Source: Oculina patagonica (taxonomy: Eukaryota). From it: a stretch of DNA of 64,000 bases. Shown here one piece after another: positions 2,814 to 61,000 of this stretch; the first letter of the stretch is position 1; each line of letters starts with the position of its first letter. Below the pieces are notes generated by a model. It was not told where the DNA came from, made no database searches, and worked only from the letters and a program-made list of their open reading frames with translations. Location of the stretch: NCBI RefSeq assembly GCF_052425735.1, contig NC_135762.1:27900001-27964000 (forward strand), read 5' to 3'. The position numbers and the translations under genes are program-made.

Positions 2814-2912
2814 TCTCTAACTTGATCTAATAGTATTGTTCCTTGTTACTTAACAATGAATGTAAAAGGTAGTTGAAGCAAATGCTGCATGTGAATGACA
2901 AATGTACTATAA

Positions 2913-3511: not shown

Positions 3512-3794
3512 TAATTTGTAAAGTCTTTGGCTATGTTAGCTGAATGTCACTTCTCAGTATTTACTTGTAGCGCTGTATAAAGTGGGGTAATAACGCTACA
3601 TTGACAACATTGAACAACATCAAACTTTTTTGGTGTTCTTTCTCATTGTTGGCTACATTGTACATGTTACTATTTACAGCAGTTTGGTCATGTCAGTTAA
3701 ATAATATGTGAATGGGAAAAAGCTGTGAGATAAAAGTAAGAAAAAGTGTCCATACTTTTCAACACAATATAATTTCTAGTAAGTTAATTATAAG

Positions 3795-5454
3795 CTAAAA
3801 TAAAGGTCCTTTGAAATTGGTCAAAAAACAACAAACACTCCACACCTGATTTACAGATCCTCCTAAGACTAGAGGTTGGACTCTGTCAAAAAAATGATAT
3901 TCTTTGACTCGTCTTATAGCTCTCTCAACGTGTATTCGAAGTCTTGCAATTTCTTGGGTGTTGGAGACCTCTGATGATGTAAACTGTTTATTCCCAACTT
4001 TAGAACAACTTTTACTTTTGCCTAAGAATGGAGGAATTGCAAGTTTTACATTTACTTTGTTGAGAAGGTCATCGATCAAAAACCCCTTGTCTGCCATAAC
4101 TTCAGTTCCTTCTTCCAGCAAGTCCAGAATTCCACTTTGACGAGTTATTTCTTTGTCTGATATGCTTCCTTGAAACAAAGAACTCACAAAAGAGACTGCT
4201 CCATTTGGGGATATCCCGACAAGGCCTTTATATGTGGTGTGGGACTTATAAGAAGAATAAAACTCAGAATTTAAAACCTTAGAACTTGGGGTCTGAACCT
4301 TTATCTCTGTACAGTCCAAGATCACACAAGTATGTGGGTATGTTGCTCTAAAACAATCCGGTAGGTTTGCCCGCACCTGGGCTTTTGAGGGCCAGATGGG
4401 TACCTGACCAAGCATGAAATAAAGAAAATTAGCCCATGTCAAAAATACTCTACTAACAGTACTGGGACTGACTTTAAACCTTACAGCCAAGTCCTCAATA
4501 GGAAAACCTTGCTTAATTCTGACTAGAAATAAAAAGAACTGATCAAACAATGGTAGGGTACACTTGGTGCTGGTTTCAACGCCTTCTTTTCTTTTGTAAT
4601 CCACTGGCGATTGACCACTGCGCTGCACTTGGGACCATGTTGCCATGTTCTTAGCATAAGGCTGAAGCCAATTGAATACTGATTTTAAAAGTTCATAAGA
4701 ACCGAATCCTGTGTAGAACTTTATCTGTTCCGGACCTTTTGAAAATCTTTCCAATCCAAACTTTTCCAACGACAAAACGGCAACTTGTTCCTCGAGTTCT
4801 GCAATTTGTTCCTCCAGTTGTGCTATACGATTCTTCAACTGTTCTTCAGCGGTTGGTTCTGAGTTTACCGAACTGCCTTCCAACTTACTGGCTTCTTCAT
4901 CACTGGATGCATTCTTCTCAAACCGAAGTTTTTTACGTCGTTGGAACACATTCTCTGGTCGCTGCTGTGTTGTTTTGGTCCATGCAAAAACTGACGGCAC
5001 TGCTTGATCCCTTAACCGCTTCCTTCCAGCCAACGTGGTTTGAATTTCATCTGTTTTAAAATGCTCTGAGCAAACCAACGTGGAGTCTTTTTGTATCTGT
5101 AAACAATCGCCGATCGATCTAATGTTAAATTGATTGTTTATACTGTGAAAAACTCCACAAAGGAAACTAATCATAATTACATAATTCACTATTGCTGCAA
5201 AAATCAACGTTTATTGAGCTTATGTTTAGGTCTTAGTCAAGCAAAGTCAAGAACAGCGATCGATCGTAAACAACCTATTTATGCACGATTTTTACCTTGA
5301 ACAAAGGGCCTTCATCACGTCGTATGGCAATTATCCAAGCCTTTCTTAGCTGTCCATCCTTCGGGAAATTAAAAAACTTCAAATTTTTTCCGGTAGCAGA
5401 TGATTTACGTTGGTCGTTGTTACACAAAGGAACACAACAATGATAGTGCGCCAT
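3795..5454 (-). CDS. ISL2EU transposase, THAP + coiled coil + HTH + DDE (DDE_Tnp_4-like); exons 5454-5296, 5096-3795 (~486 aa)
   Basis: Exon 1 MAHYHCCVPLC...FPKD...W..AIRR joins VCSEHF to form the THAP domain. Catalytic triad in ILDCTE, MADKGF and RIHVERAI. Confidence 0.92.
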
Positions 5455-13023: not shown

Positions 13024-13995
13024 TCAAAGAGCCATTGTTCGCGAAACAGAAGGTAAAACAGCTGGTCTTACGACTCTGTTCTTTTTGGCTAAAGGAACTG
13101 ATAGGACGAAGCGCCGTCGAAACTTGACTTTACAAATAGCATACAGCATCGGGTTAAGGAAAAACGAAATCTTGGCAAAGACACTACATGTACTGGTAGC
13201 TAAAGGATTAACCTTTTGTCCTAGAACTAAAAGGAAGGACACTATAGCGTAAGGTGACCACGGGATTAAAAAAGCAGCTATGATAGCTAAAAAGTACATG
13301 GAAGATTTACGATGTTTCTTCAGAAGCGCCTGTCTCGCAGTCATTGCGAAACGACTTCCTTGGGAAGTATTAACAGCAATCTGTTTGGAAACTTGGTGGA
13401 TCTTGTAATAGCAAAACGTGATCATGGCCAAGGGTAGAAAATAGCAAGTGACAACGACAACTCCAAAGTATGCCTGATCGCTTGGAACAGATGATTCCCA
13501 TTGAACTGAGCATGTTACATTTGTTCCTTCTAGGCCATATCTTGACCACCCGACCAAAGGTGCCACGCTGAAGCCAAACGAGTAAATCCAAGAGGCCAAG
13601 ATTATCAACACCACTTTCGTCTTGTCAAAATATGAATCTCTTGTAAGAGATCTAGTTATTGTCAAATACTTTCCCGCTGAAATGGCAGCCAAGTGAGTGA
13701 TAGAAACGAGGGCGAGTAGAAATATCAAGAAGGCATGAGCCTTGCACCCAGCCATGCCAAACGGCCATTCCTTATGGAAATGCCTTGCGATCGACAGTGG
13801 AATAGCTATCGCGCAAGAAAGAAAATCACTTACCGCGATACTGAGAATAAGATATGTCGGTGCTGAAATGCGACGATGGATATTTCTACAAATTGTAAAG
13901 ATCACAATTCCATTAAATGTGATTCCAAAAAGGCAGACCAAAATCTCGGTGATCACGAAGATTGTGTTCCAGCTTGCGAGACGTCCTTCATGCAT
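13024..13995 (-). CDS. Opsin (intronless class A GPCR), copy 1, 323 aa
   Basis: 7 hydrophobic segments, TM1 GxxxN, TM2 SD, C110/C187 equivalents, WSRYGLEG (E181), retinal-binding K296 in FAKIS, NPMLY. Confidence 0.92.
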   Translation of the reverse strand: MHEGRLASWNTIFVITEILVCLFGITFNGIVIFTICRNIHRRISAPTYLILSIAVSDFLSCAIAIPLSIARHFHKEWPFGMAGCKAHAFLIFLLALVSITHLAAISAGKYLTITRSLTRDSYFDKTKVVLIILASWIYSFGFSVAPLVGWSRYGLEGTNVTCSVQWESSVPSDQAYFGVVVVTCYFLPLAMITFCYYKIHQVSKQIAVNTSQGSRFAMTARQALLKKHRKSSMYFLAIIAAFLIPWSPYAIVSFLLVLGQKVNPLATSTCSVFAKISFFLNPMLYAICKVKFRRRFVLSVPLAKKNRVVRPAVLPSVSRTMAL

Positions 13996-37662: not shown

Positions 37663-40600
37663 ATGGCATGGCCAGGATTAAAGTGGTGGCATATAAAAAA
37701 TGCATATTATCTGCAAAGCAATGTTAAGTTACATGTTCTTTTCATATTGCCTGGCTACGTTACTTGTCATATAGTATCGTGCTTACAGGAGAGGGCCAGG
37801 CTTTCATTAAGTAACGACGTTGCGCTCCACCGAGCCAGGCCCAGTCTAAACACTCTATAAATTCTGTACGTATCATCTCTGTATATCACTCACAAGCTCA
37901 GTTCTATCTCAGGTGCTGACAACTCTAAACACAGAGAGGTTTATGTTTCAAAGACTGGAGATGACTCTGAAAGTTGTGGTCCACGCAGTACGCCTTGCAA
38001 GACCATAGGACAAGCCGTTCGTCAAGTGGACTGGAACGGGTACATTTACAATGATGGTAAAGATACTGAGAAAAACCCTTATGACTGCAAGCCCGCGATA
38101 AATAATAAGTCACATGTTGGAATCAAAGTTCAGAAAAGTTTGCACATGGTTGGTATGGAATACACACCACACATTTCCTGCTTTGGTGGACTGACATTTC
38201 TTTCCAACACAAAGGCACTGAAGATTGTTCTATCAGGCATCGTTTTTCGGCAAACACCTCTGAGTTTTCAAGGTTGTGATCTAGTTAAAATACTCAACTG
38301 TTCCTTTGTAAACTCGTCGACAGCTTTGACGGTTCGCATGGAAAACAACACAAGCATGCAACTTGATATTCAAAACTCCTCGCACTTTGAAAACAATACT
38401 TCATGTCTAGAAGTGTTCGTATTGAACAGCGTTGAAAATCGAGATCAGTTTCTTACTGTCGATGTCAGTGATACAAAATTTCAGAACAACGGGCTTCTAC
38501 AGATCGGTTAGGAAGAGGAGCTATAACAATAAAAAACGAAGTAGGAAAAAATTCAAGCATCGCACATGTCCAAATATCGTGCTTCAAGATCGCATTCATA
38601 AACAACCGTGGGTACTTTATAAACCTTGACTTACCAACAGCTACTACGAGCGAAGAATACGTGGATATCAAGCTTATAAATAACACCCTTTCTCATTTGA
38701 TAAGTTCATTTCGTAGAAGAACATACAGCCAAGTAAACAGTTTGTACACTTCTCGTGCAAGACAAACACGTGCTCAATTCAGCAACTTCAGATGTTCTCA
38801 CAACCACTTATTGCGATGTATAAAGATTGTGTCTGATGAAGCCGTTGTAACAATTCGAAACTCTTCATTCGTTGGACAAACTATAACAAACGACAGAGGG
38901 GCAGCGGTGTTTCTAGAGTCAAAAGCAAGCGCGACCTTAGTTTTGATCAAGAGCAGGTTTCGACGAAATAAAGCAAAAGGAGGTGCGGCGATGTTTATTG
39001 AATGTAAAGACGGGATCTTAAAGCTTAATATTTCATTCGTTAATTTCACTGAATGCACCGCAAAATCGTACGGAAGCGCAATATCGGCTGGGAATCCCAA
39101 ATGTCGTTCCCTCATGAAAGAACGGATCGAGGACAAACAAATTTACTGTAGACTTAAAAGAGGTCCAAGTACAGAAATCCTACGGAAAAAAGGTTGCCAG
39201 TGTCCACATCCTGCTGTATAATGGAAAGGTTACCATCAACAATTCTTCGTGGAGCAACAACCAAAATTCATCAACTTATGCTTTGATAGTGCAGAATACA
39301 GGTGGTAAAACTAACATCACAATTTCTGGATGTTCCTTTATGCGAGGAGGCACTGTTAGAGTTATGGCTACGAGTAAACATGCAACAGGAAGCGTTACCG
39401 TTGAAAACTGTATAACGTCTAATCAACCAAAAGGACTAAAAGTGAGCAGTTTAGTATCTGAGTCCAAAGTTCAAAATCAAGGTGATCAAAGTTGTATTTT
39501 ACTCCATACTCGGCACTGGACTCGCAATATTTCCATCGACTTTGGCAGTATGATGAAATACCGGTTGAAATTTACATCTATAACTGCACATTTATCAATA
39601 ATTCGTACGACATTCTGGTACATCGTAAGGCTACAACCGAAGTGAAGTTCACCATTAGGAATACCGATTTTAGCAGCAGAAAGAAAGAATTCAGAGGAAA
39701 ATTTGGGATTTATTTTAGCGTAAATCAGTTAAGTAAAGTAAGTTCCTCAAACGCAGTTATCAAACTGGACAACATTTCATTTGATTCCCGACCTTCTAAC
39801 AGTTTTCTTTTGCAGTTTCCTGGTAAAAAAACGTTTACAATACAACGATCGACATTTCGAAGTGGGACTTGCCTTTGTTGAAGACGTTTTTCGTCATGCC
39901 GATCTTTATACTATAGGAACCGGTGCCATATCAATACTTAACAACCCTGATAAACTCCAGAGGACGGGTTGTATTAGGAGGATTACAAATGAAGACATTC
40001 ATTCTTTGTGGAATTACGACAGTGATGTGATATTTGAAGATGTTTTGTTCGAGGGAAGCGTGGGATTAACTGCTGGCGCTGTCTACATCAGCAATGGAAA
40101 CGTGACGTTTAATAGATGCACGTTTCGCGACAATTTTGCAACCAAGCGTTCCGGCCATGTTTATTCAGCATACGGAACTGGCCGAGTTGTGTTTAAAGAT
40201 TGCTTTTTCTCAACATCAATGGAGAAGATATCAGTAAATGACACAACTTTTGACAAATCCACATTTCCTGTATTCTGAAAGTGGAGGACCTATTCTGTTT
40301 CAAAACACATCAATGGTTTCGGACAACGCTGAAAGAGCGCGTTACGCCGTAGTTGACATTTCCAGTGGAGGATACGTTACTATCGACAATAGGACAACAA
40401 TTGAATGCGGGCAAGGAAGCCAGCTGTTATTTGAAAATTACACCCACTTCGCGTATTCTGAGAAAAACTGCACCTCTTGTAGGATTAATGTAACAGTTTT
40501 AAAATATTCCTGTAGGCTATGCCCTCCTGGTTTTTACAGCCTTCAAAAAGGAGTTTCGCAAGGTTTGAATGTGAAGGGCTCGTTTAACTGTTCGCCTTGC

Positions 40601-42224
40601 CCCTATGGAGCCAACTGCATTGAGGACAACATAGCTTCGAAAGCAAATTTCTGGGGCTATCCAATTTCCAATAACCTGAGCTTCTATGCGTGTCCAGAAC
40701 ATTACTGTCAAAGTCCAGCTTCTAATTCAAAAGAGTACAACAGTTGTCATGGAAACAGAGCGGGTTTTCTCTGTGGAAAGTGTGCTCCAGGAGTATAGTG
40801 AAACTATGTTTTCTACTGAATGCCGCAAAAGTACTGAATGCAACAACCATATGCTATGGATAATAACAATCTTGTTGTCAACTGGATTTACCCTTTATCT
40901 TTTGAGTAAACCACCGATTTTGAGTTTGCTTGGAAGGCAAATTTTATGGTTTAGAAAAACGGAAAACGCCTGCGTCATACAAGACTTAGGTCACGCCTAT
41001 CAACACTCGGACCGTGGGTACCTAAAAATTACATTTTATTTCTATCAAGCAGCCGAACTACTGATTGTCGGCTCCACGGAACATTTACTCCGAAAGATTC
41101 CGTTTATTTTCAGCGTGTTTGCTGCTTTTAATTTTCAAGTAAGAACTCTAAACAGAGCGATAGACTGCCCTCTTGCAGGACTTACTGCAGTTTCCAAGGC
41201 GTTGCTACTTTCTGTTACAGTTTTCCTCACAATGGCCGAAGTTGTAGTTATATACTGCCTGAACTTTGTTTTTAACAAGATACGACGAAAAGAAGGACCG
41301 TCTCTGATCCATTACATTGCTGTTTTCATAGAGTTACTGCTGTTAGGTTACGAGCGGCTTGCAGAGACGGCGCTCAAGCTCTTGCACTGTGTCCCTATTG
41401 GCTCCAAAAATCGGCTGTTTATCTATGGGGAAGTTCTTTGTTGGCAATGGTGGCAGTACATTCTACTTGCTTACATTGTAGTATTTGTGGTTCCTTTTAT
41501 TATTGTACTTTATTGTGGTTCTTCCATGCTCTATAAAGCCTCCATTTCTGTGTGGGAGTTTCTTGGAGCTTGCATACTTCCACTGCCCTTCCTCATTTAC
41601 TGGTTTTTGAAGAGGTTTCTGCAAAAAAGGGAAAACAATTCTGTGAACACACAGGCTAACAACAAAGATGTTTTAGAAATACTGCATGGTCCCTTTCGTA
41701 AACCAAACTCTGAAGATACAGGAACGCTCTACTGGGAGAGCATTTTGATTGGTCGACGGTTCGCACTGCTTGCTTGTCTTGCCTTCATTACAGACTCAAT
41801 GTTCCGAATGGTTTGTATGACTATTGCCTGTGTTCTCATTTTACTCCATCACATACTGAAGAATCCTTATCACGATCCGATCGCCAACAAAGCTGAAACG
41901 TTCTCTCTCCTGACCTTAGTCATTATGGCAATTATTAACCTTACAAAAGCAACTCTCATCTCGTTTGGAACAAGCATTGATGGTCCAACCAAGCCTTATT
42001 TGGAAACTCTGGAGTGGGCAGAGGTCTGTGCTTTGGCGTTTGTCCCAACAATGCTGTCTATTTTTGTTGTTTTTGCCATTTTCTCTCAGATGGTACGATT
42101 ACTTATTTCTCTGGCAATGAAAATATACTGTTGCTTGCAGTGGCATCCATATCGAATATCGTTTTATTTCGCAAGACATCAGGAAAGACCTCTTCTGGAT
42201 ATTTCCGAAGGAGACGGATCTTAA
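37663..42224 (+). pseudogene. Disrupted gene for a large membrane protein: parallel beta-helix-like ectodomain, Cys-rich region, multi-pass (~7) TM domain
   Basis: YVSKTGDDSESCG...PCKTIGQA N-cap motif, repeated NCSF.N / F..N.A..GGA turns, C..CPPGFYS, CPYGANC, C.GNR.G.LCG.C..GYS, then a hydrophobic C-terminus. The reading frame shifts at least six times, and there is an in-frame TAA at 37858. The 5' end is uncertain. Confidence 0.75.
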
Positions 42225-42623
42225 TTGCTTATCAAGTGATGACACCATTTCATCAGTTAAAGATCGGTCTGTTTTTCTACACAACTAAGTATCAATTAGA
42301 GGGGCCAATTAGCACTGCAAAATATTTCTTTGTTATTAAGAACAGTGAATGGTATAAGCGAAAAGATAAAACGTTTTCAGGAATTGACAATGTTAGTTAT
42401 ACCAGATGCACAATGAGCATGTTAACAGCTCTTCTTGAAGAGGAGCTTCTAGTGCCTTTTCTATTCTGAGGCAATTAGGTTTTCCATTTTTAAGAGTTGT
42501 CCACTTGAAATTAATTAAGCCACTGTAGTGTTCAATGTCAAAATTTGATCTGGCAATAGCTATCTGAAAATTATCTATCCGTCTGGAGCCTCTTTTTTGT
42601 CTTCATCATTATATATTATATAA

Positions 42624-43239
42624 AGGGGGAGACCCTTAACTACATAATGGTTACTATGGATGGCTTCTAACTGTCATATCTTTGGCTCCCATAGTATCCT
42701 GGGTTTAGGTTTTGGCCATGTTTGTTTTATTGGAGGTTGCCGTCAATTTTTAGTAGTAATGACCGTATTTGGTAAGTCAAATGACCAGAACACAAAAACA
42801 CTAAAAACTCACACAGCTTACATTTTTCTCTGTTGAAATCAAATCACAGGGTAGAGTGCATTAATAAAGAAAAAGTGTAGCATAGATTTGTTGAAATTTA
42901 CATTATTATTAAAGCTGTGACGTCACAAAAATTTTATGACGCCATAGTTTTTTTAAGTAACGCGAATTCCAACAAATCCATGCTTCAGATTTTTATTCTA
43001 AATGCACCCTACCCTTGGTGTTGATTTCAACAAAAAAAAATGTAAACTGTGTGAGTTTTTAGGATTTTTGTGTTCTGGTCAAATAACTTACCAAATGTGT
43101 TCATGACAACCAAAAAGGAAGGAAATCTCCAAAACGAAAAAAATGACCAAAAACTTAACCCAGGATACTAAGGGAGCCCAAGATATGAAGGTTAGAAGCC
43201 ATCGATAACTACTATTTTGTAGTTTAGTGTCTCCCTCCT
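42624..43239. mobile_element. Foldback-like palindromic MITE
   Basis: The two halves are imperfect reverse complements over almost the whole length (GGGAGAC.CT.AACTACA ... TGTAGTTTAGTGTCTCCC). Confidence 0.75.
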
Positions 43240-44761
43240 TAAATATAATATGTGAATTATGATTGTAAACATCTTGCCAACAAAACCAGAGGACAGTTCT
43301 TAGAGAAGGGATTTTCCTGAATTTAAACGTATAGTGCGTGTTTAGTTGATTTAGCCAAAAAGCTTTGAAATTTATTTCAGTGCCATGAGTTATGGTGGAA
43401 TAGTGTTAAGAAATGGTAGCAAAGCATGTCGCACATAGTGCAAATAACGCCAAGGTCTGATTTATGGCAGAGCCAGGCAAATCACACACGTGAATACAAA
43501 GAAACCTACTGTAAGCGGACACCCTTGGTCCCAGAAAAGGTGTCCACTTAGAAGAGGCGTCTGCTTATGGGAGGTTAAAATTGTAGTACTTGCATGTGAC
43601 TGGGACCATGTCTAAGTGTCCGCCTACGGGATGTGTCCGACTTCTGGAGGTATCCGTTGGTGGAAGTTGAACGGTAGTATTTGAAAGGCGTGCATTAGCA
43701 CGTGGTATATGTAGTGTGCTTTGTACAGTTTTACAGTCACGGGTATATAGTACTCTTGTTTCTATTTTGGTAAATTTTCTTGAAAATTGTATTTATGGCG
43801 AGCCGATAGGAGAGCCGTTTAAACGGTCACACAGATCGGGCACGATTATTTTATTCTACTTGTGAAATGAAAACAATAAATAGCATGCAAAGTATTGTTA
43901 TGCGATTCGGTAGAGATCTGTATCAAAAGTTAACTAATACCTATTAGCTGAGCAGGAGTTTGTATCAAAAGCTAATTATATTGTTTGATTTGTATTGGGA
44001 TTTAAAGTTGTGTACAGGTGATCTGAATACTGTGCTGGGATTGGTTTGCACCCTTATGAATGGTTAATGAATTTTACAAATATAAATAAGCGAGAAGCCG
44101 AACTTTTATTTGTTTGCGCAGTTCAGTTGATAGTAAGGTAGAAAATGCATGCTTTGTCCTTGATTAGAGAAAAATGCTTATTAGTCTGCATTGGTGCCAT
44201 ATCTCCAGTTTCAGTAGCATAAAGCGACTATGAACTACCTCTAGATGCGATGGTGGTCCCGAGTATTTATTTTTTCACCTGGGTGGAGAGACTGACACTG
44301 CGAGAGTATTGTCGATCCGGAGTCTTGCTCGAACTCGTTAATCATAAGGCCAACGCACCTCCCACTACATTTGTCTACGTTTCTTGCCCTTGATTGGCCG
44401 AGGCATGCAATCTTCAGGGGAATAGTTATCGCGCAAAAAAGGAATTAACTCACCTCGAGACTGAGGATATGATAAAACTATAAGGTAGGCTTTCTAAGAA
44501 GCAGATTATCAACTCGGCTATAACAATCAATAATTCAATGTTTATTTACCCCATGGCATCATCATTTACAGTAATCTATTTTAAATATATAATAAGCATA
44601 AGGAGCCGGGGCGAAGCTCATGTTCCATTTTTCAATGGTATCCATCGTTTTAGTCTTTCAAAGTCAGTTTTAATTTTACATCCAGTTTTTCATATGCAAA
44701 GCAGTTGTACTAAGGGACGAACCCTTATTTGTTTGGAGGGGGGAGAAAAATTTTTAAAAAA

Positions 44762-46609: not shown

Positions 46610-49400
46610 TGTAATTTAGGAATAATACCCTTGGCCTCCATTTTGACGGTTTGTGCTCCTAGTAAAATGCTGGTTATGACCATGAGTTAAAGCAGAAGAA
46701 AATATCGAAAGAATTGAAAAAGTACATGCCCACTTTAGACATATTCAGGGGGGGGGGGGGGCTTAGTTCGGAAGCCGTTATTAACGCTTTTCCCTTTTCC
46801 TGTTGAATCCATTTCTTGCCTTTGTTTTAACGGTTTGTTTTAAAAGGATTCCCCAATCAATCAAAACAAGGAAGTCGTTAAGTACGTCCAAGGCCTCACA
46901 TAACTCAAACATGAGTTTAATGGTTCATTTTTCTTTAGTTACTTGAACTTAACTGGTTTATTTAAATATTACAACAAAGTAATACATTCACCAAAACGAA
47001 AGGTTTACGATTAATGATATAATAATTCTGTGCTGTATTTTTTTTTTTTTGACCAAAGGAACTAATGACAATATATAAATTTAATCGTGGGGCACATAGA
47101 ATACCGCCAGACAAGTTCATTTATTCGATCTATAAAAAAGAGCTAGTAAATTCAAGAAAACTTATTCTGATAATTTTAACGTGACACCTTTGTAGTTAGC
47201 TCGTGCATTTGTTCAAAAACGAGAAGAAAAAACACATGGTGAAATACTTATCTCCAATCGAAAATGTTTTCCGTCGCTGTCAGAAACGTCTCAAGGGAAC
47301 TGTGCTCTTTTCTTTTCCTGGAAGTAATTTAATACAAAAAATATTTAACAATCAAAGATCATCTAAAACCCTAGGCTAGGCTAAGCTTTGGCCTATTCTT
47401 TAAGGCGTGGGATAAATAAAAATATAATAATAGCTAACAGGTATTTACAAGGCTGGCAAGTGTACAGACAGTATTTTTTGTCGTGACTTTTGCAAGTGTA
47501 ATGTTTTCATAAACATAATGAAAAACAGGTGAAATGCGCTCAGATTACTGATTTTGGAGGAAACGGTTTAATTCATTTGTTATTTAGATTGCCGACTGAA
47601 TGTTGAAATGTTTAAGAGAAGACAAAACTTCCTGATAACTTGAACGGAACTAGCGCAACAAACAGAATAGACACGAAAATAGCATTGCAAATCAAGTTGC
47701 CGGATGCGTTGCGATCACTTGGTTGAAACGCTTACCAACAGATATGAGAAACATTCGGACACAATGCAACAACCCGCTTTTTGACAAAACAAAACGGTAC
47801 CAGCTATAGTTTAATAAGGTTATAGGCCTCGAGGCAGTGGTTAAAAAGCATGCATGAAGGACGTCTCGGCCTCGCAAACTGGAACCCGATCTTCGTGAGC
47901 ACGGAGCTTTTGGTCTGCCTTTTTGGAATCCCATTAAATGGAATTGTGATTTTTACAATTTATAAAAATATATGTCGTCGCACCTCAGCCCCGACCTATC
48001 TTACCCTCAGTATCGCGGTGAGTGATTTCCTTTCTTGTGCGATAGCTATTCCACTGTCGATCGCAAGGCATTTCCAAAAGGAATGGCCGTTTGGCATGGC
48101 TGGGTGCAAGGCTCATGCCTTCTTGATATTCCTACTCGCCCTCGTCTCCATCACACACTTGGCCGCCATTTCAGCGGGGAAGTACTTGACAATAACAAGA
48201 TCTCTAACAAGAGATTCTTATTTTAACAAGGGAAATGTGCTGTTGATAGGCTTGTCCTCTTGGATTTACTCGTTTGGCTTCAGCGTGGCACCTTTGTTAG
48301 GATGGTCGAGATATGGCCCAGAAGGAACAAATATAACATGCTCAGTCAAATGGGATTCATCTCTTCCAAGCGATCAGGCATACTTTGGAGTTGTAATCTT
48401 CACTGGATATTTCCTACCCTTGGCAGTGATCACGTTTTGCTATTACAAGATCCATCAAGTTTTCAAACAGATCGTTGTTAACACTTCCCGAGGAGGTCGT
48501 CTCGCAATGACTGCGACACAAGCTCTTTTGAGGAAACGTCGTAAATCTGCCATGTACTTTTTAACTATCATAGCTGGATTTCTACTCCCGTGGTCACCTT
48601 ACGCTATAGTGTCCTTCCTTTTAGTTCTAGGACGAAAGGTTAATCCTGTAGCTACCACTGCATGTAGTGTCTTTGCCAAGATTTCGTTTTTCCTTAAACC
48701 AATGTTGTATGCCATTTGTAAAGGCAAGTTTCGACGGCGCTTCGTTCTGTTAGTTCCTTTAGCGAAACAGAACAGAGTCGTAAGACCAGCTGTTTTACCT
48801 TCTGTTTCGCGAACATTGGCTCATTGAACAGCATGCATCAACTTCTGCTGGGATTCAACTTGGCAGTGTCTCAATACATACTTGGACTAATGGCCGTAAG
48901 CTGTTTACGCGAAAGTATAAAAAAGACTGTGTAAACATGACGCACAATCTTAAAAATCATGTCAAATCATTTAGTTCGCAATGTTGATAGTATAAATCCC
49001 GCTGTAATACCCTACAAATGGACAAAAATAATGAAGTGATTTCAATAGAGGGATTTAAGATCATTGTGAACAACGCTACTGGTACAGGAAGGATTTTTGA
49101 TTTTCCAACGTCTAGCGAAAGCTGTTCCGTGTCATTAGCCATTTTGTAAGGTTTTCCGTTCCAATTGCCTTACAATATGTATTTTCATTCACCATTTCGA
49201 CGAGATGTATAAACATCCTAAGGTTTAAAAGGGATCAAAATATAAATTTCTATCAAAGGAGGAATGGAAAAGTTGAAACTGTCAATTTGGGTAGCCGATA
49301 TTTTTTCTCCAAGTAAATGAAATGATATTAGCGGCCTGCAGCTGTTAGCAATTTATAAGCAATTGTAATATTTAATAGCATGAAAAAACTGCAAAAATAA
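46610..49400 (+). repeat. Inverted segmental duplicate of ~12240-15370 (opsin plus flanks)
   Basis: Collinear reverse-complement similarity in the CDS and in both upstream and downstream non-coding DNA. Confidence 0.85.
47850..48827 (+). CDS. Opsin (intronless), copy 2, 325 aa
   Basis: Close paralogue of copy 1. K296 (FAKIS) and E181 (WSRYGPEG) are present; NPxxY reads KPMLY. Confidence 0.9.
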   Translation: MHEGRLGLANWNPIFVSTELLVCLFGIPLNGIVIFTIYKNICRRTSAPTYLTLSIAVSDFLSCAIAIPLSIARHFQKEWPFGMAGCKAHAFLIFLLALVSITHLAAISAGKYLTITRSLTRDSYFNKGNVLLIGLSSWIYSFGFSVAPLLGWSRYGPEGTNITCSVKWDSSLPSDQAYFGVVIFTGYFLPLAVITFCYYKIHQVFKQIVVNTSRGGRLAMTATQALLRKRRKSAMYFLTIIAGFLLPWSPYAIVSFLLVLGRKVNPVATTACSVFAKISFFLKPMLYAICKGKFRRRFVLLVPLAKQNRVVRPAVLPSVSRTLAH

Positions 49401-52099
49401 AAATCAATTCTGCATGACGACCTAAGCCATACCGATCAATTGAACGTTGAAGGCCTAAGACATTTGGAGCAGCAATGCAAAACAGTGGACTAGTATGAAA
49501 CTACGACTGAAAATGAGCTACTCGGATATATTTTAAAGGCATTCTTTAAAACGTATTTGATACAATACCAATCCATTGCAAATGTGTTCCCAGAAAGGGT
49601 TATCCAACACGTACAATGACGTACACGCATTAGCTAGTGTTTTTCACTTCGGGGTGAGATAACATGACGGGTATGTGAGAATTGTTCTTTGGATGACAAT
49701 AAAAACGTGATTCAAATTTTCTTGAACACACTGAGTAGTCGTTCGACTAAATGCAGTGTCCGTTTTCCTGTCCACAGTCGCCAGTCGAATTCGAATTGGG
49801 ACTTACGCTATCGCAAAATTTTACAAACATGTATTTATTATCACTGACTTGATATAATTTACAAAGTAAACGGGGCGCTTACCTTTCACTCAGTTCGGTT
49901 TGGAATCGCAACAATTTCAGCATATGTCGCTAGCCACGAAATACAACTAAAATCTTTTATTTCTGATTTAACCTTAATTTCATTTAATTTACTACTATAT
50001 CAACTTGGAATTGAAATTGAGATGAAAAATTGTCTGCACTTTTTCGGAACCTATTTAAAAAAAATGCTTTGTGACAACAACGATTTTAAAAATTGCAAAA
50101 AAAAAAGGCCGATGTCATTAAAGCCGAATACAACATATAATAGAATCCTCGGAGTATTAACTGAAAGTTTTTCGAGGTTTTAAAAAGAGAATGTGCTGTT
50201 GCATTCAGGTCGGGATTCCGGTGAAAAATACATCAGAAAATTTATTAAGTTCTCTCTCAGAATTTCAGAAAATAAACAAACTTATGTGTACCGTATTCTA
50301 GAAGTTTCGGAGCGCCATGTGAATTCAGTTTTGCGCACAAACTTAAGTGAATCTATAAAGTAACCTTATAATGCCTTGTTATATTTTTTTCCTATGTTTG
50401 GTTTTCTTTTTTTCGAGTTAAAAGCTGAAAGCAAAATGCAAACAGGAGCGAGAATGGCAGATTGCTGTTAATTTTTTTTTCTTAATCATGAAATGCTCTA
50501 ATGATGAATGCAAAAAAAAAAAAAAAGACTCAGCAACAGTCTGACATTGCGTTTGCGTTTCCTTGTTGATTTATTCTAAATTTTATTTAATTTTTCTTTA
50601 AAATGGAAAATTTTAAACATGTTGACGACGTGTGGTCGACTAACAAAAATATTTAACTTCTTACTAATTGGCTTAAAATAACTACTTTATCAGGACGTTG
50701 TGAGAACAATATTCATTTTACGACTGTCTGGCTGGAGCTATCTCATAACGAACGATCAGCATTTTAACAGACAGAATAATTCTTTATCATGATTAGTATA
50801 TTCGAACCAGTAACTGAAAAACGGCTTAAATCTAACTTCTAGCAGACACTGATGTACAGTGAAAGATGAAGCTGGTATGTGACAGAGTGGTCGAAAAACA
50901 TAGTGATACAACTATACATAAGTCCTGAAATGGCGTGTTTACTCCACATTTTTTAATCGTTTTAGACAGCAGGCCAAATGTTAACTTGGTTACTTGTAAC
51001 AAAGAGATACGAATCCACTGGCTCAGCTTTAGGTACATACTAACCATACGGTAAGGGACTTTGCAATAATAAGCAAGAGGGGGGAGGGGGGGGGGTTAAA
51101 CCAGACGGGGAGGGGGGCATTAACTAACGTTGTTGTAAAGATAGGGGGCCCAGAGTAAAAACATAATCATTTGACAGAGGGTGCTTTTAAGTTATATTTG
51201 AACTGTATACTGTCTTTGGTATAACGCGCAGTGTATCTTATTTTAGTATATGAAGTGAACCTTCCTTTAAAGAGTGCCAGATATTATCAGAAATACATAA
51301 TATAACTATAAATAACACGACAAACATCCCAAGTGGAAGTCCACACTGTAACTCAGTAACTAAGAATCTAGTTTATAAGAAAATCGAGGCTAAAATTTGC
51401 GAATTTTTAAGAATATTTTAAGAATAAACCCAAGGTTGAGATTTTAAAAAGAATATAGTTTTTAGTTGAAACAAAATCAGGTAGTTTCATTTCCGTCACT
51501 TTATCTCTGTGAGGAAGGCTTTGTTTAAAGCAAAAACGGCGAGGCTGCAACGAAAAGCAATGGTACATGGGCACAATGTAACACGATACAGATCTGAACA
51601 CCAAAAATTGATTTAAAGATCATAGATTTAAAGATTTTTTGTCACTTTCTGCTATTTTCTTTCCATTTCCATTACAATTTGTCTTTTCATTTGCATTGTT
51701 AAGGAAATACTTATAAGCATTCAAAGGTTACCGTATTTATTCGATTAAAATCCGTGGCGTTCATTGAATTTTTCGGCGTTTACTTGTTTGAGGGCGGCGT
51801 TCTGCAACTGAGTACCCCCCCCCCCCCCCCCCCCAAACCAGCGCTCCAAGTTTTGTAGTGCCAACTTAGTCTCCATCTCTTGGTCTCCAGAGAGACAAGT
51901 CTGTTATGAAGTAACAATGCAGTGTGCCATCACTTCTCTGCTAATTTAATTGGTTGTTCTTTAAATGTAACCAGCGAGACTATGTGCAGTTCTCTGTACT
52001 CAAGTAATTCGTTCCTAGCTGGAGGGCTGCAGAAGCCCAAAGCAAAGACGCGTGCTATCACCATTACATTCTCTTTTCCCGTCTCAAACATGGCCAATG

Positions 52100-55000
52100 T
52101 TAATTTCCGGGGTAGGGCGGTGGTGGCTCTCCAACATAAGAAGAATGTGCTGTTTCAAGTTGTACTTGCAGAGGCGTTGTGCATTCTGGGAAAGCGGTCA
52201 TTGAGAATTGTGGGTAAAATTCTAGCTGCTGGGGAGGTACTCGGGCAGACTGCTGCTCGTTCGGTATGGCAACTGTTATTGCTGTTGGCTGATCCGGGCG
52301 ATGTGTCCCAAAAATGTATTTGCGATCTTTGCAGCACAAAACTAAAAAGATAAGCCCGCCAATGACGAAGATTGCGAGGAAAAAGAAGCCAACAAATGTG
52401 CTCGCGTTGAAGGCTAAAAATAAAAACGATAAAAGAATAAAACTAATAATTAGATAATCGTATAAACGAACGAATGAATGAATGAACGAATGAATGAATG
52501 AATGAAGGAAGGAAGGAAGGAAGGAAGGAAGGAAGGAAGGAAGGAAGGAAGGAAGGAAGGAAGGATCGTTTCCCTTAAATCTTGTTCCTTTACAAAAATA
52601 TTTACAGTTTAAAAAAGAAGTTTTGAATAAATCAGTTGAACTTCCACATCAAACTGGAAGTTTTCATGGAAACTGGCAGTGCGGCAAAGAAGATGACTGG
52701 AAGAGTTTCCCTGTAATGGCGGAAACGACGGATTTCGCGGATTTCGCGGAAATTTTCAGATTAAAAAATAAAAAAAAATAAAAATAATAAAAATAAAAAA
52801 TAAAAAAATAAAAAATACATTTTTTATTTTTTTTATTTTTAATATTGATATATTCAACTATTATACTTACAGTTTTAAAGAGAAGAATTAAATTAAATCT
52901 AAAAATTTCCGCGAAATCCGCGAAATCCGTCGTTTCCGCCATTATTGGGAAACTCTTTCAGTCAACTGCTTCGTAGTACTGCAAGTTTCCATGAAAACTT
53001 CCAGTGCTGCAAAGCAGTTGACTGAAAGAGTTTCCCAATAATGGCGGAAACGACGGATTTCGCGGATTTCGCGGAAATTTTTAGATTTAATTTAATTCTT
53101 CTCTTTAAAACTGTAAGTATAATAGTTGAATATATCAATATTAAAAATAAAAAAAAAAAATAAAAAATATTTTTTATTTTTTTTATTTTTTATTTTTATT
53201 TTTTTATTTTTTTTTTATTTTTTAATCTGAAAATTTCCGCGAAATCCGCGAAATCCGTCGTTTCCGCCATTATAGGGAAACTCTTCCAGTCAGCCGCTTT
53301 GCAACACTCCCAGTTTCCATGAAAACGTTCAGAGCTGCAAAGCCCTTTCTTACTATCTTTTCTCCTTCAATGTGAAAATGAAAATTGTTTTTTATAGTTT
53401 TATGTATGGTGTATTTTTAACATAAGTCGTGAAAATTTTGTGATACATCACGAACATATATGCACCGTAGTAGATGATCTTTGACTCAAACATTTTTCAT
53501 TCTTATTGCGGCTTCGTTATCAAGTTAACTGTTAACTGGTGCGAAATGGCTGTCGATTGTCAGGTCAACAGATTGGCTGATCAGTGCAAATAATCGCGAC
53601 ATTAAATTCATGAAACTACTGTGGCGAAACAATTCGTCTAGAAACTCTCTGAAAAGCATTTTGGAATTGATGAAGTGACACAATTGGCTATTAAAAAATG
53701 TCGCTATGGCTTCGTTATCGGCTTGATTTTAGTGTAAAAATAGCTGCTAATTACTAGGTTATGTAATGATCTGCTGATCAACGCAAATAATCGCGATATT
53801 AAATTCATGGAAATACTGTGGCGAAAAAATTCGTCTAGAAAACACTCTGGAAAGCATTTGGGAACTGATAGAGTGACACAATTGGTCATTTAAAAGCGTC
53901 ACTGTGGCTTCGTTATTGACTTGATTGTTAGTGTAAAAAAAGCTGTAAATTACCAGGTTAGGCGATGATCTGCTGATCAGTGGAAATAATAGCGACATTA
54001 AATTCTTTCAAGTAATCTGGTCCCTACTGAGTTCATTTTTTGGCTATAATTATTCCCGGGGAATTAGCAAGTCTGCTCTCTATAAAAGCAGAACACGTTT
54101 AAAGGCATAAATCAGTCCAAGATGCAGAGCTCGAGAGCACGTTTCCCTGCGAGACAGCTAAACAGTCGAACAATTAAGAGCGCGGCGTTGTGCTATTTAA
54201 GCCCAGTGGTTTTGGGAAAGTGTAGCATTACAAGTGCGAAGTGCGTCTGCAGAGTTCAAGAGAGTGGTTTTCAGGACGCTTGGAATAGCGTGTGCCGAAC
54301 TAGAGATGCCTGTGATAGCGCACTACGAGGTTAGTTTCTGATATTGCGATTTTAAACTTGTTCAGTGTCTCTTGGGTGAGATAACCAGAAGCAGATCATT
54401 CGGTAATAATTTTTTGCTTTGTCTATTTCGCAGGCATGAAGAATGTAGCGTTCTTTTTTAGTGCCATTAGTACGCAAAAGTTGAAGAAACAGCGAGATAA
54501 GAAGAAATCAAATGATCATGACGAGAATGAAGATAGCGATGATGCGGACGAATATCCAGAATTAAGTCAGTTAGCGAGTTCAACGAGCCAACAATGGGCC
54601 GAAAGTCACGCATCAATTATAAACCACAAGCTTTGCCCAGCTGTGAGCTACTGGATCGCGTCGACAACGCCCAACGGTGCTCCACGTAGCCCCCTTGGTA
54701 TCCATCGTGTTCTCTTGGAGTGCAACGTGGACGTATTTATAAATCAGGTAACAAAAATAACATGTTTATTCACATTCGTACCAATCGCATTAGCTTCACT
54801 AGCCGGATGATAAAAAGTAGTTACTAGCTTATATGAAGGCAGTGAATCAAGCAGTGAAAATGTGACAATTCAAAGGACCATTCCAATCATCGAAATTAGT
54901 TTTGCCTTGAATTTACGCTACGTCGGGCTCCCTTAAAACTTGACAGTACTCGGAACGACGAATCACTTGTTAGGACTAGGTCAAAGTTGCTCACCACCTT

Positions 55001-58000
55001 AGAACTTTAATTAACTGGCAACTGTTCTGAATTTTAGGTCGCTTGTCACGAAGGGAAAGAAAGTGGCGCAATGAAAGAGCTTTTTAAAGTCCTTAAAGAC
55101 CACAACAACACCTTCATGGTGGAGTTGGTGAATTCGTCTTACAAATATTGCTTTCGAGATGAATTTGAAAGTGTCCTGGGTGAGGCCGATTCAATAGATG
55201 TTGACGAATGTGGTACCGAGAACGTGGTCAGAATTTGTCTAGTCGATCCCTCGTTCCATTCCAGTCTTTCGGTGGCGTTGGGAAAACTCCAAATTGCAAA
55301 GTTGGTCATCGAGCACTTCGGATTCCACGTAGACGGCTCGGATATTCAGACAGGAAACGAACCGGTCGTTGAAAAGGCAAGATTATCTGATAAACTCACA
55401 GTGCTTGTGAACGATATTGGCATCGCCATGGAAAAGCTCGGGTACGCTCTCTATGCTGGAAAGATCTACAAAAAGTGTGAAAAGGCAAGGTACACCTATT
55501 GGTATAAGTGCGAAGTTGAGGCGTTTGTTAATAGCTTGGCGGCCAATCGATCTTTCAAAGCCAGACTACTTAAGGACATGAAGAAAGTCATCGAAATCCT
55601 AGCCAACCCACATTGCGAAGTCATTCGACCTCTTTGCGTGGACTACGATTTGATTGAGGTGAACGAAGGCCAGTGCTGGTCAATCAAGGAGCGACGTTTC
55701 TTGGAAAATGCGATCAAAGACAAGGACATCGGTCATGTTACACCCCGAGCGTTTTCGCCATACGATCCAACCAAAGTTCCGGATCCAAAATATTTCAGAG
55801 AGATCTTAGAGAACAGCCTAACGGAAGCCGAAGTTGGGGAGTTCTGCGAGGATTTCATCAGGCTTCTACATCACAACCAGAAACGACACAAAGACAAAGT
55901 ACCATGTCTGATTGGCGCTGCGAACAGCGGTAAAACGAGTTTATTTCAACCGATCTTAGGACTCGTACATCACAGCAACATAGCGACTATCACGAAGCAG
56001 CGCGTGTTCAATAAGGCCATGATTAATCGCTTTACAGAAGTGATTTTCATTGACGAAGCCAGTCCCTCAACCTTAGACATCGACGATTGGAAAATCCTTA
56101 CCCAAGGCGGATTTACGGCATGCGACGTAAAGTACCAAACGGCAAAGAGCTTCATTAACCGTTGTCCAATGCTTTTGACCGCCCAGACGAAGCTTGAATT
56201 TAAGGCCGATGACCAACCCGCCATGGATCGAAGGTTGAAGAACTACACCTTCAAGAGTCTGCCCAACCCGAGAAAGAAAGCGACAGAGTGGCTTAGGAGA
56301 CACCCCATGGAGTGTGTTGCGTGGGCGGCTACGAAGGCGCGTCCACCTAGTGACCAAGAAGAGAGCTCGGACAACGGTGAAGACGAACAAGAGCCAGAAA
56401 TCGGCGATGGCGTCCTTAAAGCCGAAGAGAAGGATGCTCTGCGGACGCTGTCACTCTTGGAGGAGAGCTGTGAAGATGATTCGCTAGAAGAGACGAACGA
56501 AGCGGTCAGTGCAATGGAAGAAAGCAACGGCGAACCGGACACCTTGCAAGACCACCTCAGTCAGCTTCAGCCGGGCAGTCTTAGACACAGGCAAATGGCC
56601 CACATTCTGGAAACAGAGAAGGAGAAGCAGAAACAGATAGACCAGTTTTACCGGACGAGAGATGTCGAGAGGTATGAAGATGTTCAGACGGCGGTAGATC
56701 AGGATGAGGCACGAGGCGAAGCTGCGAGAAAAGCGTTCGAGGGCAGTTGGTTGAGAGACACCGAAATTGAACTCAAAGAGTGTTGCGATAAATATCAAGC
56801 TACGCAAGACTCTTTCGTGCGCTCGAATGTGAAGGCGTGGATGGAGGTTCTGTGCGAGAAGCTGAAAGCTCACCACCAAGCCCTGGGCACCTTTAACACC
56901 ATCGAGGCCATAGAGGAGCGAAAGAAGGTGTGTACAGCACTCGGCCTGCTCAGGAAAGAAGATCATCGTCTGGTGACAAGTGTGGCGGAGCGACTCCCGG
57001 TACTAACTCGCCCAAGTGCAGATGCAGACGAAATTGTTGCACAACAGGATGTAAGCGATGAAAGCAGTCAAGAACGGAGGCTTTTCATCACTCCAGTGCC
57101 CAGTACTAGTCGTAGGCCGTTACGCCAACACGACGACTGCGCGGTGTCCGAAGCACTGCTCCGAGCAAGTTCTACCTTAAAGCGGAAGAGAGGTTCCAGC
57201 AGTCAGCGCGGAAGAGAGCAACAAAGAAACACCATAACAAAGTATCTCTCGAGCACGCAACATGAGTGAACGCAGTCTGACGATCAGAGAACGGAGAAGA
57301 GTAGCGACGACGAGATGTTGTTTGTCAGTATTGTAGTTCTAAGTTACATGTTAAGCGACGTGCCACGATTACGACAGGCGAGATATAGAATTCATGTATA
57401 CAGACAGAGAGATATAGAACATTGCTCGCTACCAGGAGTGTCACAAAAAGTTCTTTCTGTTGTTGTTACAAAAGAGTGTACTTGTCAAGTCAAGAAATTT
57501 ATTTAATGATGTAGTAATTTATTACTGTATTCTTTATTGCACAGTCACGATTAAATGCCTTTCTTGCTTAACACAAGTTTGAAATGTCATTGCTGTCCTT
57601 GCCTTGGTAATTAAACTAGCTGCATTTTCATTCCAGCCCTTTTCTTGAGAGAGTCCGCCGTTCTTCCGTCTTGAAATTTGAAATCGGGATCTCTCAAAAT
57701 TGCCGTCCACTGTCCAAACCCGTACCTTTTTAAACCTTTCTTGAGAAAATTGTCCTCTTCTTCCGTGAATTTCAACACCCGTCGATGATTTCGTTGAATT
57801 TGCAATTGTTTTTTGGGAGGGGAGTCCCTTTCAGAAGAGGCGCTCATTGATTCTGCTGTTCCGACCGATTCTGAAATTGTTGAAGTTGTAGCGCTAAACC
57901 TCGTGTGCACTTCCTTATCCAAATCTGAGCCTTTCGTTCCTTGTAGCTTTTGCAGACACTCGTGAGCTTTCACAGCAACTTCGCGCGATCTCTGCTTTTG

Positions 58001-61000
58001 ATAGTGAACTTTTGCAACGGCAGAACTGTGTTTTTGGTCTTCTGACAAAATTTGTTGCTCCGTGCTTGTGAGTAGATTGAGGCTTTGCGTTTCGACAATT
58101 TGACGATAGCGCGTTGGATGAATATACTTCCCGATTGCATCGAACACCAATTTACTCATGACGTCGCCCAATTTGCTATGCTGGCCTCCGTTTCTAGTGA
58201 CAAGTACGAAGTCGCACTGGGGTTTGAGTAATGGCCTTACGAAATTGATGTAGCTTTCCAGCACCCGCATGCTTGCATCAGTCAAAATTAATGAGTCAAA
58301 TCCATACTTGCTGGCCGTTTTGAACTTTTTCTGGTCAATGAATCCTCCGTTCGCCTTAGCTGTTTTAACCATGTCCACCGTCAAGTACTGATAAGTCATA
58401 GGGCGAGATCCCTTCACCTTTATGAATAAATACACGGCGACAAATTTCGTGGCAAATGTTAGGTCCAAAGGATTCACTTGACCCGGAATAGTTTTGCAAG
58501 TCTTTACCGTGTTTTCGTAACGAGGCAAATGAAATGTCACCACTTCTAACAGTTCTTCCATGGTTGCCCAGTGCCCTCTAGCATCCAAAGTCTCAATGTC
58601 TAGATCTTGTGTCCACTGCAATCTCATCATCTTTGCCACGGTTTTGCGCGCTCGTTTGAGGTACAGCTCCGTTGAGGACAAATTTCGAAGAACTGTGTCT
58701 GATGCGCCATTTATCTTTCTGAAGTCGATTAATTCGGAAATCGCATCAATGTAGCCCAATCGGCCACCGTGTCCGAGTTTGCATTCATCTTGCAGGTAGT
58801 CGATAAACTTGAACAACAAACAATGCGAACACAGGCTAAAATCCAGCACTTCAAAACTCAATTCCTCTTCATCTTCGCAGCAAAATTTGAGAAATTTGAA
58901 ACACCTCTTGACTATCTGCTGGGCTACACGATCTTTCTTGCAACCCCCACCACTTCCCGTCAACCACTTCACAAACGATTCGCCAATTTTGCTGGAAACT
59001 GAAAATGAAGGCAAAACTCTGGCAGTTTGTACTGTGATTTCACTCGATTTAACATCACTGGCGCCTTCTCTTTCGTATGCAGCGAGTATTCCCAGATCAG
59101 GTTTCTCGTCAAAGTAAAAGAACCAACTGTGCTTGGTATTCACATGTTTTCTGCACCCTCTCTGACTTTGAAAGCCATCATGGTCACACACTTGTATTGG
59201 GCAATGATACAATCGGTCGGTTTCATTCTTTTCCAGGTGAAGCCGTTTTGGTTTGGGCGATGCTCCATCGATATTTGACCAATTGATTTTACACTTCTTG
59301 CTCATTTTATCATCAAGGTAAAATGGTCAACACAATCTCCTAGAACTGAATTTCTTTTCCAAAAAAATACGACGCACCAATTACACCTTAAGGAACTTCA
59401 TTCGTGTTTAAACTTGGCAAGGCGCGCCTCTTCTTGCCTGCCCTCATTACTATTGTGCAAAATTCATGACACCCAAGATTGTGCTCAGCTTGCCCAAGCA
59501 GGTCTATGCGCGCCCCATTGTTTTTCTTCATTTCAATGGACAATATAATTTAGGAACAAAATGGTCAAGTAAGCGCAAGGAATTCGGAACCAAAGAGTCC
59601 TGAATTTGTTCCTAAATGAGCAGTTTAGGAACAATACGTTCCATTTACAAACAGGAACTCGGAACAAAACGGTCTCAAATTATCAATTTGGGAACAAATC
59701 GTTCCATTCACAGTTAAGAACTCGGAACAAAACGGTCCTAAATTATCAATTTGGGAACAAATCGTTCCATTCACAGTTAAGAACTCGGAACAAAACGGTC
59801 CTAAATTATCAATTTGGGAACAACGCGTCCCATTTACAGATAGGAACTCGGAACAAAACGGTCCTAAATTATCAATTTGGGAACAACGCGTCCCATTTAC
59901 AGATAGGAACTCGGAACAAAGCAGTCCTAAATTATCAATTTGGGAACAATATGTTCCATCAACAGTTGGGAACTCGGAACGAAATGTTCCTGTTTTATCT
60001 TAGGGTGAACGTTTTGTTCCTAACTTTATAAAAAGCTGGTCCTCTTAAGGTTAACAGGAACACAAATATGAGGAACAAATTATATTAGAGGAACGTTCCT
60101 AAAGAAAAGATCGGAACATGCTACAGAACTTAAAATCAGTTAAAAACGGGCAAAGATATAAATTACAAGTCACAAAACAGTTAGTTGAGCGTTTAGGTAA
60201 AATGAAAGCAATCATCGAAACTTGGTAAACTCTACCGCACTCAAAGGCTGTAAAACACGCAGTGAAAATTTTTGGGAAACGTTAAGGAAGGAAGGAAGGA
60301 AGAAGGGATGGATGGATGGATAGATGGATGAATGATAAATGAATGAATGAATGAATAATGGTAGACTTTTCTGACCGTAGAAAAAGGCATCAAGGCAACT
60401 GAATGGAATTAATTGCGATAAACTGAAATCAGTAGATCTCGGAACGGTAGTCTGAATATTAAATAGTTTTCTGTTGTTTTATCTTTTTTCTTGTTTGACT
60501 GTACTTGTGTGTGATTTTTTTTATTTCTTTGCCTCTTGGACTATCTGTTTATCTTCTTGCTATTAATACTTAGAAGATCTAGGAGAAATAACCCTACAGA
60601 TACATTGAAAGTATTTAGATAAAAAACTGATAACCTAACACAAGCAAAGCTCAATGCAAGTTACCTTCGACTTCTTGTAAGAGGGATAACAATACTAGGA
60701 AATAAAACAAAAAATTTACAGATGCATTGTGGCTCAAAACATTAACTAAAAAATTAAGGTCGAAAAAAAAAAAAAACAACACTGGTTCATCAGCCATTAA
60801 ACCATGTCGACTGTTCACCCGTGAGCTCTCACTAAACTAATTAGTTTAAAAATCCTAAGCTGAATCTCTTTGACAAAATAAAATCAATCATTAACGCAAC
60901 TGTATGGGTTGCAGCTAAGTGTGTCATGGTAATATTATTAGTATGGATAATCAAATGGTGACGAGTGAAATTAGGAAATAATTTTACGCGCGTTTTGTCC

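Follow-up and report, generated by a model that had tools for sequence, protein, structure and literature searches.

Results

An element with two convergent genes

The window analysed here, 64,000 nucleotides of Oculina patagonica contig NC_135762.1, contains a 7.7-kb element at about 52560–60288. Its three closest copies are ~99% identical, and NCBI labels 99% identical proteins Oculina patagonica. Between the ends lie two convergent genes only: an initiator-helicase gene on the plus strand (54122–57269, located by tblastn of homologues) and, on the minus strand, a gene for a 564-aa probable tyrosine recombinase (57611–59305). No capsid genes were found between the ends. A purine-rich host microsatellite, the target, occupies 52468–52565 on the left (TRF period 4, 24.5 copies) and reaches about 60360 after the right end. 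There are no long terminal inverted repeats (TIRs); 8-bp inverted arms surround a T, a 6-bp overlap and a T (19 right and 29 left ends). The left attachment end (52560–52590, plus strand) consists of the 6-bp overlap ending in GA, followed by an arm inverted to the right end, and the right attachment end (60274–60288, plus strand) of the arm, T and the 6-bp overlap ending in GA, as in 19 of 19 right ends. GAT precedes the arm in all 29 left ends. Flanks of the examined junctions average 88% purine and are mostly simple repeats. Genome-wide, the left-end pattern matched 27 times against 0 for the control, so that copy number, judged by this one pattern, is low.

An origin-like block starts ~90 bp inside the left end and is present here in doubled form, as a long palindrome (52654–53332). 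It is followed, before the helicase gene, by a 198-bp tandem repeat of 2.2 copies (53576–54005, TRF). At the opposite end of the element, 63-bp tandem repeats (59610–59991; TRF and word count) are rich in attachment-arm-like words, with 24 in one 500-bp bin and 0–2 in the bins left of 59500. They are possible recombinase accessory sites. They travel with the recombinase module, and their copy number differs among copies. Head-to-tail element junctions occur at four loci (L056, at 470–500; L046; L092; L139) and at G000:C4 42.43–42.47 Mb; some pair different helicase modules, and such tandems could be a route for swapping modules on one recombinase. Single helicase-deleted copies (L043 and L042) retain the block, and no multicopy non-autonomous family was found among the examined copies. 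An Rfam scan of 52000–61000 returned 0 families, and a search of viral contigs found no relatives. A sigma-70 scan gave a near-chance result with a model that is irrelevant to an animal host.

The rest of the window holds other features. Convergent YqaJ exonuclease and THAP-DDE_Tnp_4 transposase genes at 1578–5207 form a separate DNA transposon. Single-exon rhodopsin-family receptor genes at 13024–13995 and 47850–48827 lie in a 1.7-kb inverted duplication, 81% identical. Overlapping open reading frames in shifting frames at 37861–42224, with a membrane-type region at the end, look like one frameshifted gene. A 660-bp fold-back at 42603–43262, 79% self-complementary, has no match to the origin-like block and is probably a MITE.

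The initiator-helicase and the probable recombinase

Three helicase exons are inferred from homologues by tblastn (about 54122–54329, 54434–54750 and 55040–57269), with a TATA-like word at 54081. In the alignment, the SF3 Walker A, B, B' and C motifs and the arginine finger are present. Profile searches agree with this assignment: Pfam PPV_E1_C matched 6 of 26 members (best E 1e-6), TIGR01613 of NCBIfam matched at E 1e-4, and the best PDB profile match was E1 (E 0.004). Other searches gave less. BFVD returned viral SF3/D5 proteins (best E 1.5e-5) and Foldseek against PDB weak D5/E5 rows only (best E 0.006), while phmmer against PDB found nothing and the plasmid collection held no match.

The N-terminus had no usable match in the Atlas. 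A fold search was made with the whole model of a homologue (P0132, pLDDT 77), and the top 7 structural matches were all Rep/HUH domains (Z 6.6–7.7, rmsd 3.2–4.7, 95–156 residues aligned). They include SIRV1 ORF119, described as an HUH protein (PMC11253617), Reps of vientovirus, nanovirus and circovirus, and a Helitron transposase. Ferredoxin-like domains came next, at Z 6.6 and below, and T antigen and E1 domains were not among the 50 rows listed. The tool cautions that Z values below 8 may reflect common folds, so the Rep-like reading is suggestive only. The HUH motif (H-hydrophobic-H) occurs in 0 of 26 rows over the N-terminal 300 columns of the aligned helicases, and no motif-III tyrosine is conserved before the invariant lysine in these rows. 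The model thus suggests a Rep/HUH-like domain without nicking motifs. A nicking-dead state of an HUH-type initiator domain has been described for polyoma- and papillomaviruses (PMC6668415), and this likeness favours initiation by melting over nicking.

The 564-aa protein carries an N-terminal C2H2 finger and a C-terminal TRF-like Myb domain. Residues R301, H396-x-x-R399, H426 and Y435 are invariant in 40 of 40 rows, which are fairly close to one another (63–91% identical). Searches of Pfam, PHROGs, NCBIfam and PDB gave no recombinase match, tblastn against phage gave none, and the low-confidence model (pLDDT 42) yielded only Myb and helical hairpins in the fold search. With no HMM or fold support, the call of a probable tyrosine recombinase rests on the motifs, the ends and a weak Atlas lead (DUF3435 clusters at 0.88). 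The Myb domain (57611–57790) found its best structural-database matches in the telomere-binding domains of TRF1/TRF2 (E 1e-4), and it could read the purine-rich microsatellite target.

A double palindrome with facing repeat arrays

The initial annotation had described a palindrome of about 680 bp built from two smaller ones, and self-inverse BLAST, folding and arm comparison bear this out. The axis falls at 52991/52992, with 93% identity over 682 columns; the two arms, compared over 341 columns, show 20 mismatches and 3 gap columns. Folded as single-stranded DNA, the palindrome reaches -342.6 kcal/mol (z -58 against 20 shuffles). Both shorter hairpins exist as proposed, the first with arms at 52653–52765/52893–53005 (89%) and the second at 52968–53090/53221–53343 (85%). 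However, the second starts near 52970–52980 rather than at 53011, and the two share a central 56-bp imperfect hairpin (52964–53019, -13.7 kcal/mol) on which the long axis lies. The block can indeed fold either way, and the long form is far more stable (-340 kcal/mol, compared with -106 and -111 for the halves alone).

In make-up, the block has four GC-richer stems and two A/T spacers, each 93% A/T and partly self-complementary, as had been noted for the loops. Each of the four stems contains the expected two copies of GGATTTCGC, within a longer array of 9-bp period. A period-9 scan placed array 1 at 52718–52757 (plus strand), pointing into spacer 1 (52762–52896), and array 2 at 52901–52940 (minus strand), converging on the same spacer. 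Arrays 3 (53043–53082, plus) and 4 (53229–53268, minus) are the inverse copies of arrays 2 and 1, and lie on either side of spacer 2 (53087–53224), the inverse of spacer 1. A nonamer, ACTGnAART, lies in each spacer, at 52865–52873 on the minus strand and at 53110–53118. The inner pair of stems differs at 0 of 68 positions, the outer pair at 1 of 68 and the cross pairs at 3–4 of 68; consequently, the long symmetry is the younger one.

The palindrome is present beyond this assembly locus. It occurs at four loci on three contigs (the window and L036–L038), with the same arm-specific differences. Run contigs were compared in four runs over the central 52833–53139 (307 bp), and in two of these, X1 and X9, from two studies, they cross the axis with zero differences; one of them may be the assembly's source. 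Contigs of the other two, X3 and X7, did not reach the axis and are uninformative. X9 also has a contig that departs at 53016 into the single-unit flank, so both forms are present there. The assembly artefact named beforehand as a refuting case is therefore not borne out. Nor is the block a MITE scattered independently of the element. Exact matches to its 23-nt motif number 19 in the 529-Mb genome, all in six element copies, and the 8 other places examined all run on into element sequence; dispersed copies independent of the element, as expected of a MITE or fold-back element, were thus not seen. Two places at C4:1.517 and 1.532 Mb, considered as TIRs of a 15-kb element, proved to be pieces of single-unit copies. 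Across runs X1–X14, with four organism codes and a coral metagenome, 75–86% of the element's words are present, a sharing that may reflect differing labels, close kinship or horizontal spread.

A conserved unit smaller than the palindrome

Conservation was assessed in 20 recombinase-gene matches and 25 further stretches, comprising ten left-module types. A repeat block lies just inside the left end in every type. Conservation covers less than the palindrome, namely 9-bp repeat arrays that face one another over an A/T-rich spacer, and not the 680-bp double form. Of 31 left ends, 30 have period-9 arrays no further than 1.6 kb away, and the remaining one is a short end stub. Among subfamily blocks, 9 of 10 have such arrays, with 2–10 in each against a shuffle mean of 0.05 or less; subfamily H8 had none at threshold. 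Periods 8 and 11 gave no arrays in subfamily blocks, and coding regions held 2 period-9 clusters in 5.1 kb. Neither the 9-bp period nor the shared motif was set in advance; both were picked once the blocks had been viewed. From 80 metagenome loci, all with a length of at least 4 kb were scanned, and arrays are present in 5 of 5 with a left end (L081, L089, L125, L139, L152); a converging pair was not detected in L081 or L152.

The G-rich array strands point to the most A/T-rich spacer in most blocks. For example, the A/T content of the converged-on spacer and of the others was 0.92/0.61, 0.89/0.51, 0.84/0.60 and 0.88/0.61–0.65, while the contrast is slight in H9 (0.73 vs 0.71) and mixed in H7. 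Compared at equal lengths and by one method, 18 of the 45 subfamily pairs had blocks aligning at z>4, as against 3 of 45 for the adjacent 400-bp spacers, although some cross-clade block alignments may reflect simple repeats. The shared motif ACTGTAAGT includes GTAAGT, a 5' splice-site word. The consensus ACTGnAART was counted 48 times in blocks totalling 8,060 bp, 0 times in 6,730 bp of adjacent spacers and 5 times in the part of the window that lies outside the element (56,260 bp). It is present in most subfamily blocks and does not track helicase type.

The repeats themselves follow the helicase. In three modules the recombinases are 99–100% identical, the helicase cores 47–51% identical and the repeats unrelated, and a single helicase type occurs with recombinases whose identity is 77%; the recombinase is swapped between modules. 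Over 10 subfamilies, block word similarity correlated with the helicase N-terminus (Mantel rho 0.63, p 0.0004) and the helicase core (rho 0.48, p 0.005), and not with the recombinase (rho 0.09, p 0.31); the two word measures used for this co-variation differ. The adjacent spacer used as a control also correlated weakly (rho 0.26, p 0.048), so linkage or shared descent explains part of the co-variation.

Doubling and inversion

In two ~95% identical relatives from one C4 region (L027 and L029), the right flank begins immediately after hairpin 1. These single-unit forms already hold the core of the central hairpin, and the window form is the single unit plus its inverse, joined at that hairpin. 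Sequence comparison thus suggests a one-off fold-back at the pre-existing 56-bp hairpin, in one subfamily. Other types have direct arrays (L035, L048, L050, L056) or, with the A/T core at the centre, long palindromes (L040, L045, L062, L065, L125, L139), and the relatives' long palindromes arose independently.

Inversions are few. One of the 4 copies of one type (L056) clearly has one loop inverted and the right arm overwritten from the left, and the same is probable, in low-complexity DNA, for one of 6 copies of another (L039). No flipped copies were seen among 4 window-type, 4 H3 and 2 H7 copies. Overall, there is one clear and one probable case, both one-sided, among 20 copies of five types. 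The inverted duplication had been suggested as a footprint of flip-flop replication. This holds only loosely: inversion isomers exist, but they are absent from 10 copies of three types, the doubling looks like a one-off event and there is no regular flip/flop. By analogy, the pattern is that expected of template switching near an origin, as in ODIRA (PMC10766183), rather than of balanced flip/flop. The likeness to ODIRA lies in an inverted duplication that is joined at a short interrupted inverted repeat already present near an origin (PMC10766183). Unlike the chromosomal triplication of ODIRA, the duplication here is of 340 bp within a mobile element, and the origin is a putative one.

Discussion

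The block as a candidate replication origin

We consider it probable that the block is the origin used by the element's own initiator-helicase on an excised circle, rearranged by template switching. We infer this from its position, architecture and conservation, the co-variation of its repeats with the helicase and an N-terminus that is predicted to be Rep-like and lacks nicking motifs. Of the two roles first proposed, origin or resolution site of an SF3 element, the former is thus retained by inference and the latter is not.

The leading alternative is that the block controls transcription only, as an enhancer or a helicase-autoregulated operator with no replication role. Its location ~750 bp upstream of the TATA-like word and the helicase start would suit such a function, repeats that track the helicase are also compatible with autoregulation, and ACTGnAART, concentrated in blocks, could be a host factor site. 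However, this would leave unexplained why the arrays converge on A/T tracts, why palindromes have arisen repeatedly and independently and why the SF3 helicase is intact. We regard it as unlikely, and control of transcription can coexist with an origin role.

Less likely still is a hairpin terminus or resolution site of the parvovirus/AAV or protelomerase type, or an accessory site of the recombinase. Parvovirus and AAV hairpin termini combine a palindrome bearing short initiator repeats with an SF3 helicase, and show flip/flop. The block shares the palindrome, the short repeats and the helicase. Long near-perfect palindromes with A/T cores are also found in four other subfamilies, the block would adjoin the joined ends in a circle, loop inversions occur and the shared motif is independent of helicase type. 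Several results oppose these readings. The helicase has neither the HUH motif (0 of 26) nor a catalytic tyrosine, while parvovirus Reps have HUH nuclease motifs (PMC6668415); the block is internal, and the recombination sites are the element's ends. Single-unit and direct-array forms occur, and the inversions are rare and one-sided. As for the recombinase, the repeats are wholly different between modules that share one, and attachment-like words cluster at the opposite end of the element. The palindrome as the recombinase's own site was dropped, since the repeats change under one recombinase and the attachment sites are the ends.

That the block represents neutral repeat DNA, prone to slippage and travelling with the element, is very unlikely. 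The A/T cores of the block are microsatellites whose length varies between copies, the number of units differs (L048 vs L050) and in L033 the palindrome has collapsed. Yet period, orientation, position and motif are kept across helicases that are 42–78% identical, a range over which alignment of the neighbouring spacers mostly fails. Palindromes and A/T tracts are difficult to assemble and the window has other fold-back elements, but given the shared arm differences at four loci, the axis-crossing contigs of two studies and the confinement of motif matches to elements, the chance that the palindrome is an assembly artefact or an independent MITE is negligible.

A possible replication cycle and its implications

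If the block is the origin, the recombinase would excise the element as a circle via its two ends. The N-terminal domain, predicted to be Rep-like and lacking nicking residues, would then bind the facing 9-bp arrays, and the helicase would melt the A/T spacer as T antigen or E1 do. Host primase and polymerases would copy the circle bidirectionally, and the copies could reintegrate into purine-rich microsatellites or next to a resident copy. Rearrangements of the unit would stem from template switching at forks starting in the block; in that view, origin firing would produce the 680-bp palindrome as a side effect, without requiring it as a structure. The head-to-tail junctions at L056, L046, L092 and L139 can be read as traces of circles but may also be genomic tandems.

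Transposition of Cryptons is described as having no experimental demonstration, and the excised circle is assumed (PMC13565253). Excision and reinsertion alone give no gain in copy number; with an initiator and an origin of its own, the element would gain the amplification step. If the origin reading is true, a cut-and-paste transposon could multiply like a small plasmid, and a replication mode that couples a nicking-dead Rep domain to an SF3 helicase would be found outside viruses, in coral genomes. The ten natural origin/helicase types offer a ready test of specificity. A broader proposal, which we put forward tentatively and hold to be somewhat less probable than not, is that these elements represent animal plasmids, integrative, self-replicating and without a capsid, which combine a T-antigen/E1-like initiator, an origin of their own and a site-specific recombinase and swap origin-helicase cassettes of different specificity. 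If so, the cassettes exchanged on one recombinase would resemble plasmid incompatibility groups, the elements would be to animals what the 2-micron plasmid is to yeast and they would provide a living model of papilloma-/polyomavirus-type replication without a virion.

Comparison with known systems

The element is best filed as Crypton-like and probably belongs to CryptonV, the name given to microsatellite-targeting recombinase transposons of cnidarians (PMC8869645). It shares with that group a probable tyrosine recombinase, the lack of long TIRs and inverted arms around a 6-bp overlap (PMC3212892, PMC8869645, PMC13565253), as well as microsatellite targets, a cnidarian host and a presumed circular intermediate; this comparison is with the papers' descriptions of the group. 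Unlike animal Cryptons, which are described as recombinase-only, it adds an initiator-helicase gene and an iteron block. No helicase-bearing Crypton, or origin of one, emerged from a literature search, and none appears in the available sections of PMC3212892, PMC4455052, PMC5753468, bioRxiv 2024.03.25.586562, PMC11296320, PMC13565253, PMC10288648 or PMC11253617; Repbase Reports, which lay outside the search, may record part of this.

Polinton-like virus end modules offer a second parallel, as they also have an SF3 helicase and a tyrosine recombinase and exchange modules (PMC11296320). Their inverted repeats have been proposed as both origin and integration substrate, a role to which we liken that of the block and ends (PMC11296320). 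Here, unlike in those viruses, the origin-like block and the attachment sites are separate, and no primase motifs or virion genes were identified.

The closest functional analogy is with the SV40/polyomavirus and papillomavirus origins. The element's putative origin likely works as those of T antigen and E1 do, yet outside these virus families because the element has no capsid gene; it differs from them also in its site-specific integration. The SV40 origin places inverted repeat pairs beside an A/T region (PMC1779811), and these viral origins and the block alike combine an A/T tract with short repeats in inverted pairs (PMC1779811, PMC6668415). Like T antigen and E1, the initiator is predicted here to join a nicking-dead HUH-type domain to an SF3 helicase (PMC6668415). 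Unlike the 64-bp core of SV40-type origins, the unit has 9-bp-period repeats flanking an A/T spacer of 95–300 bp, and units are reiterated.
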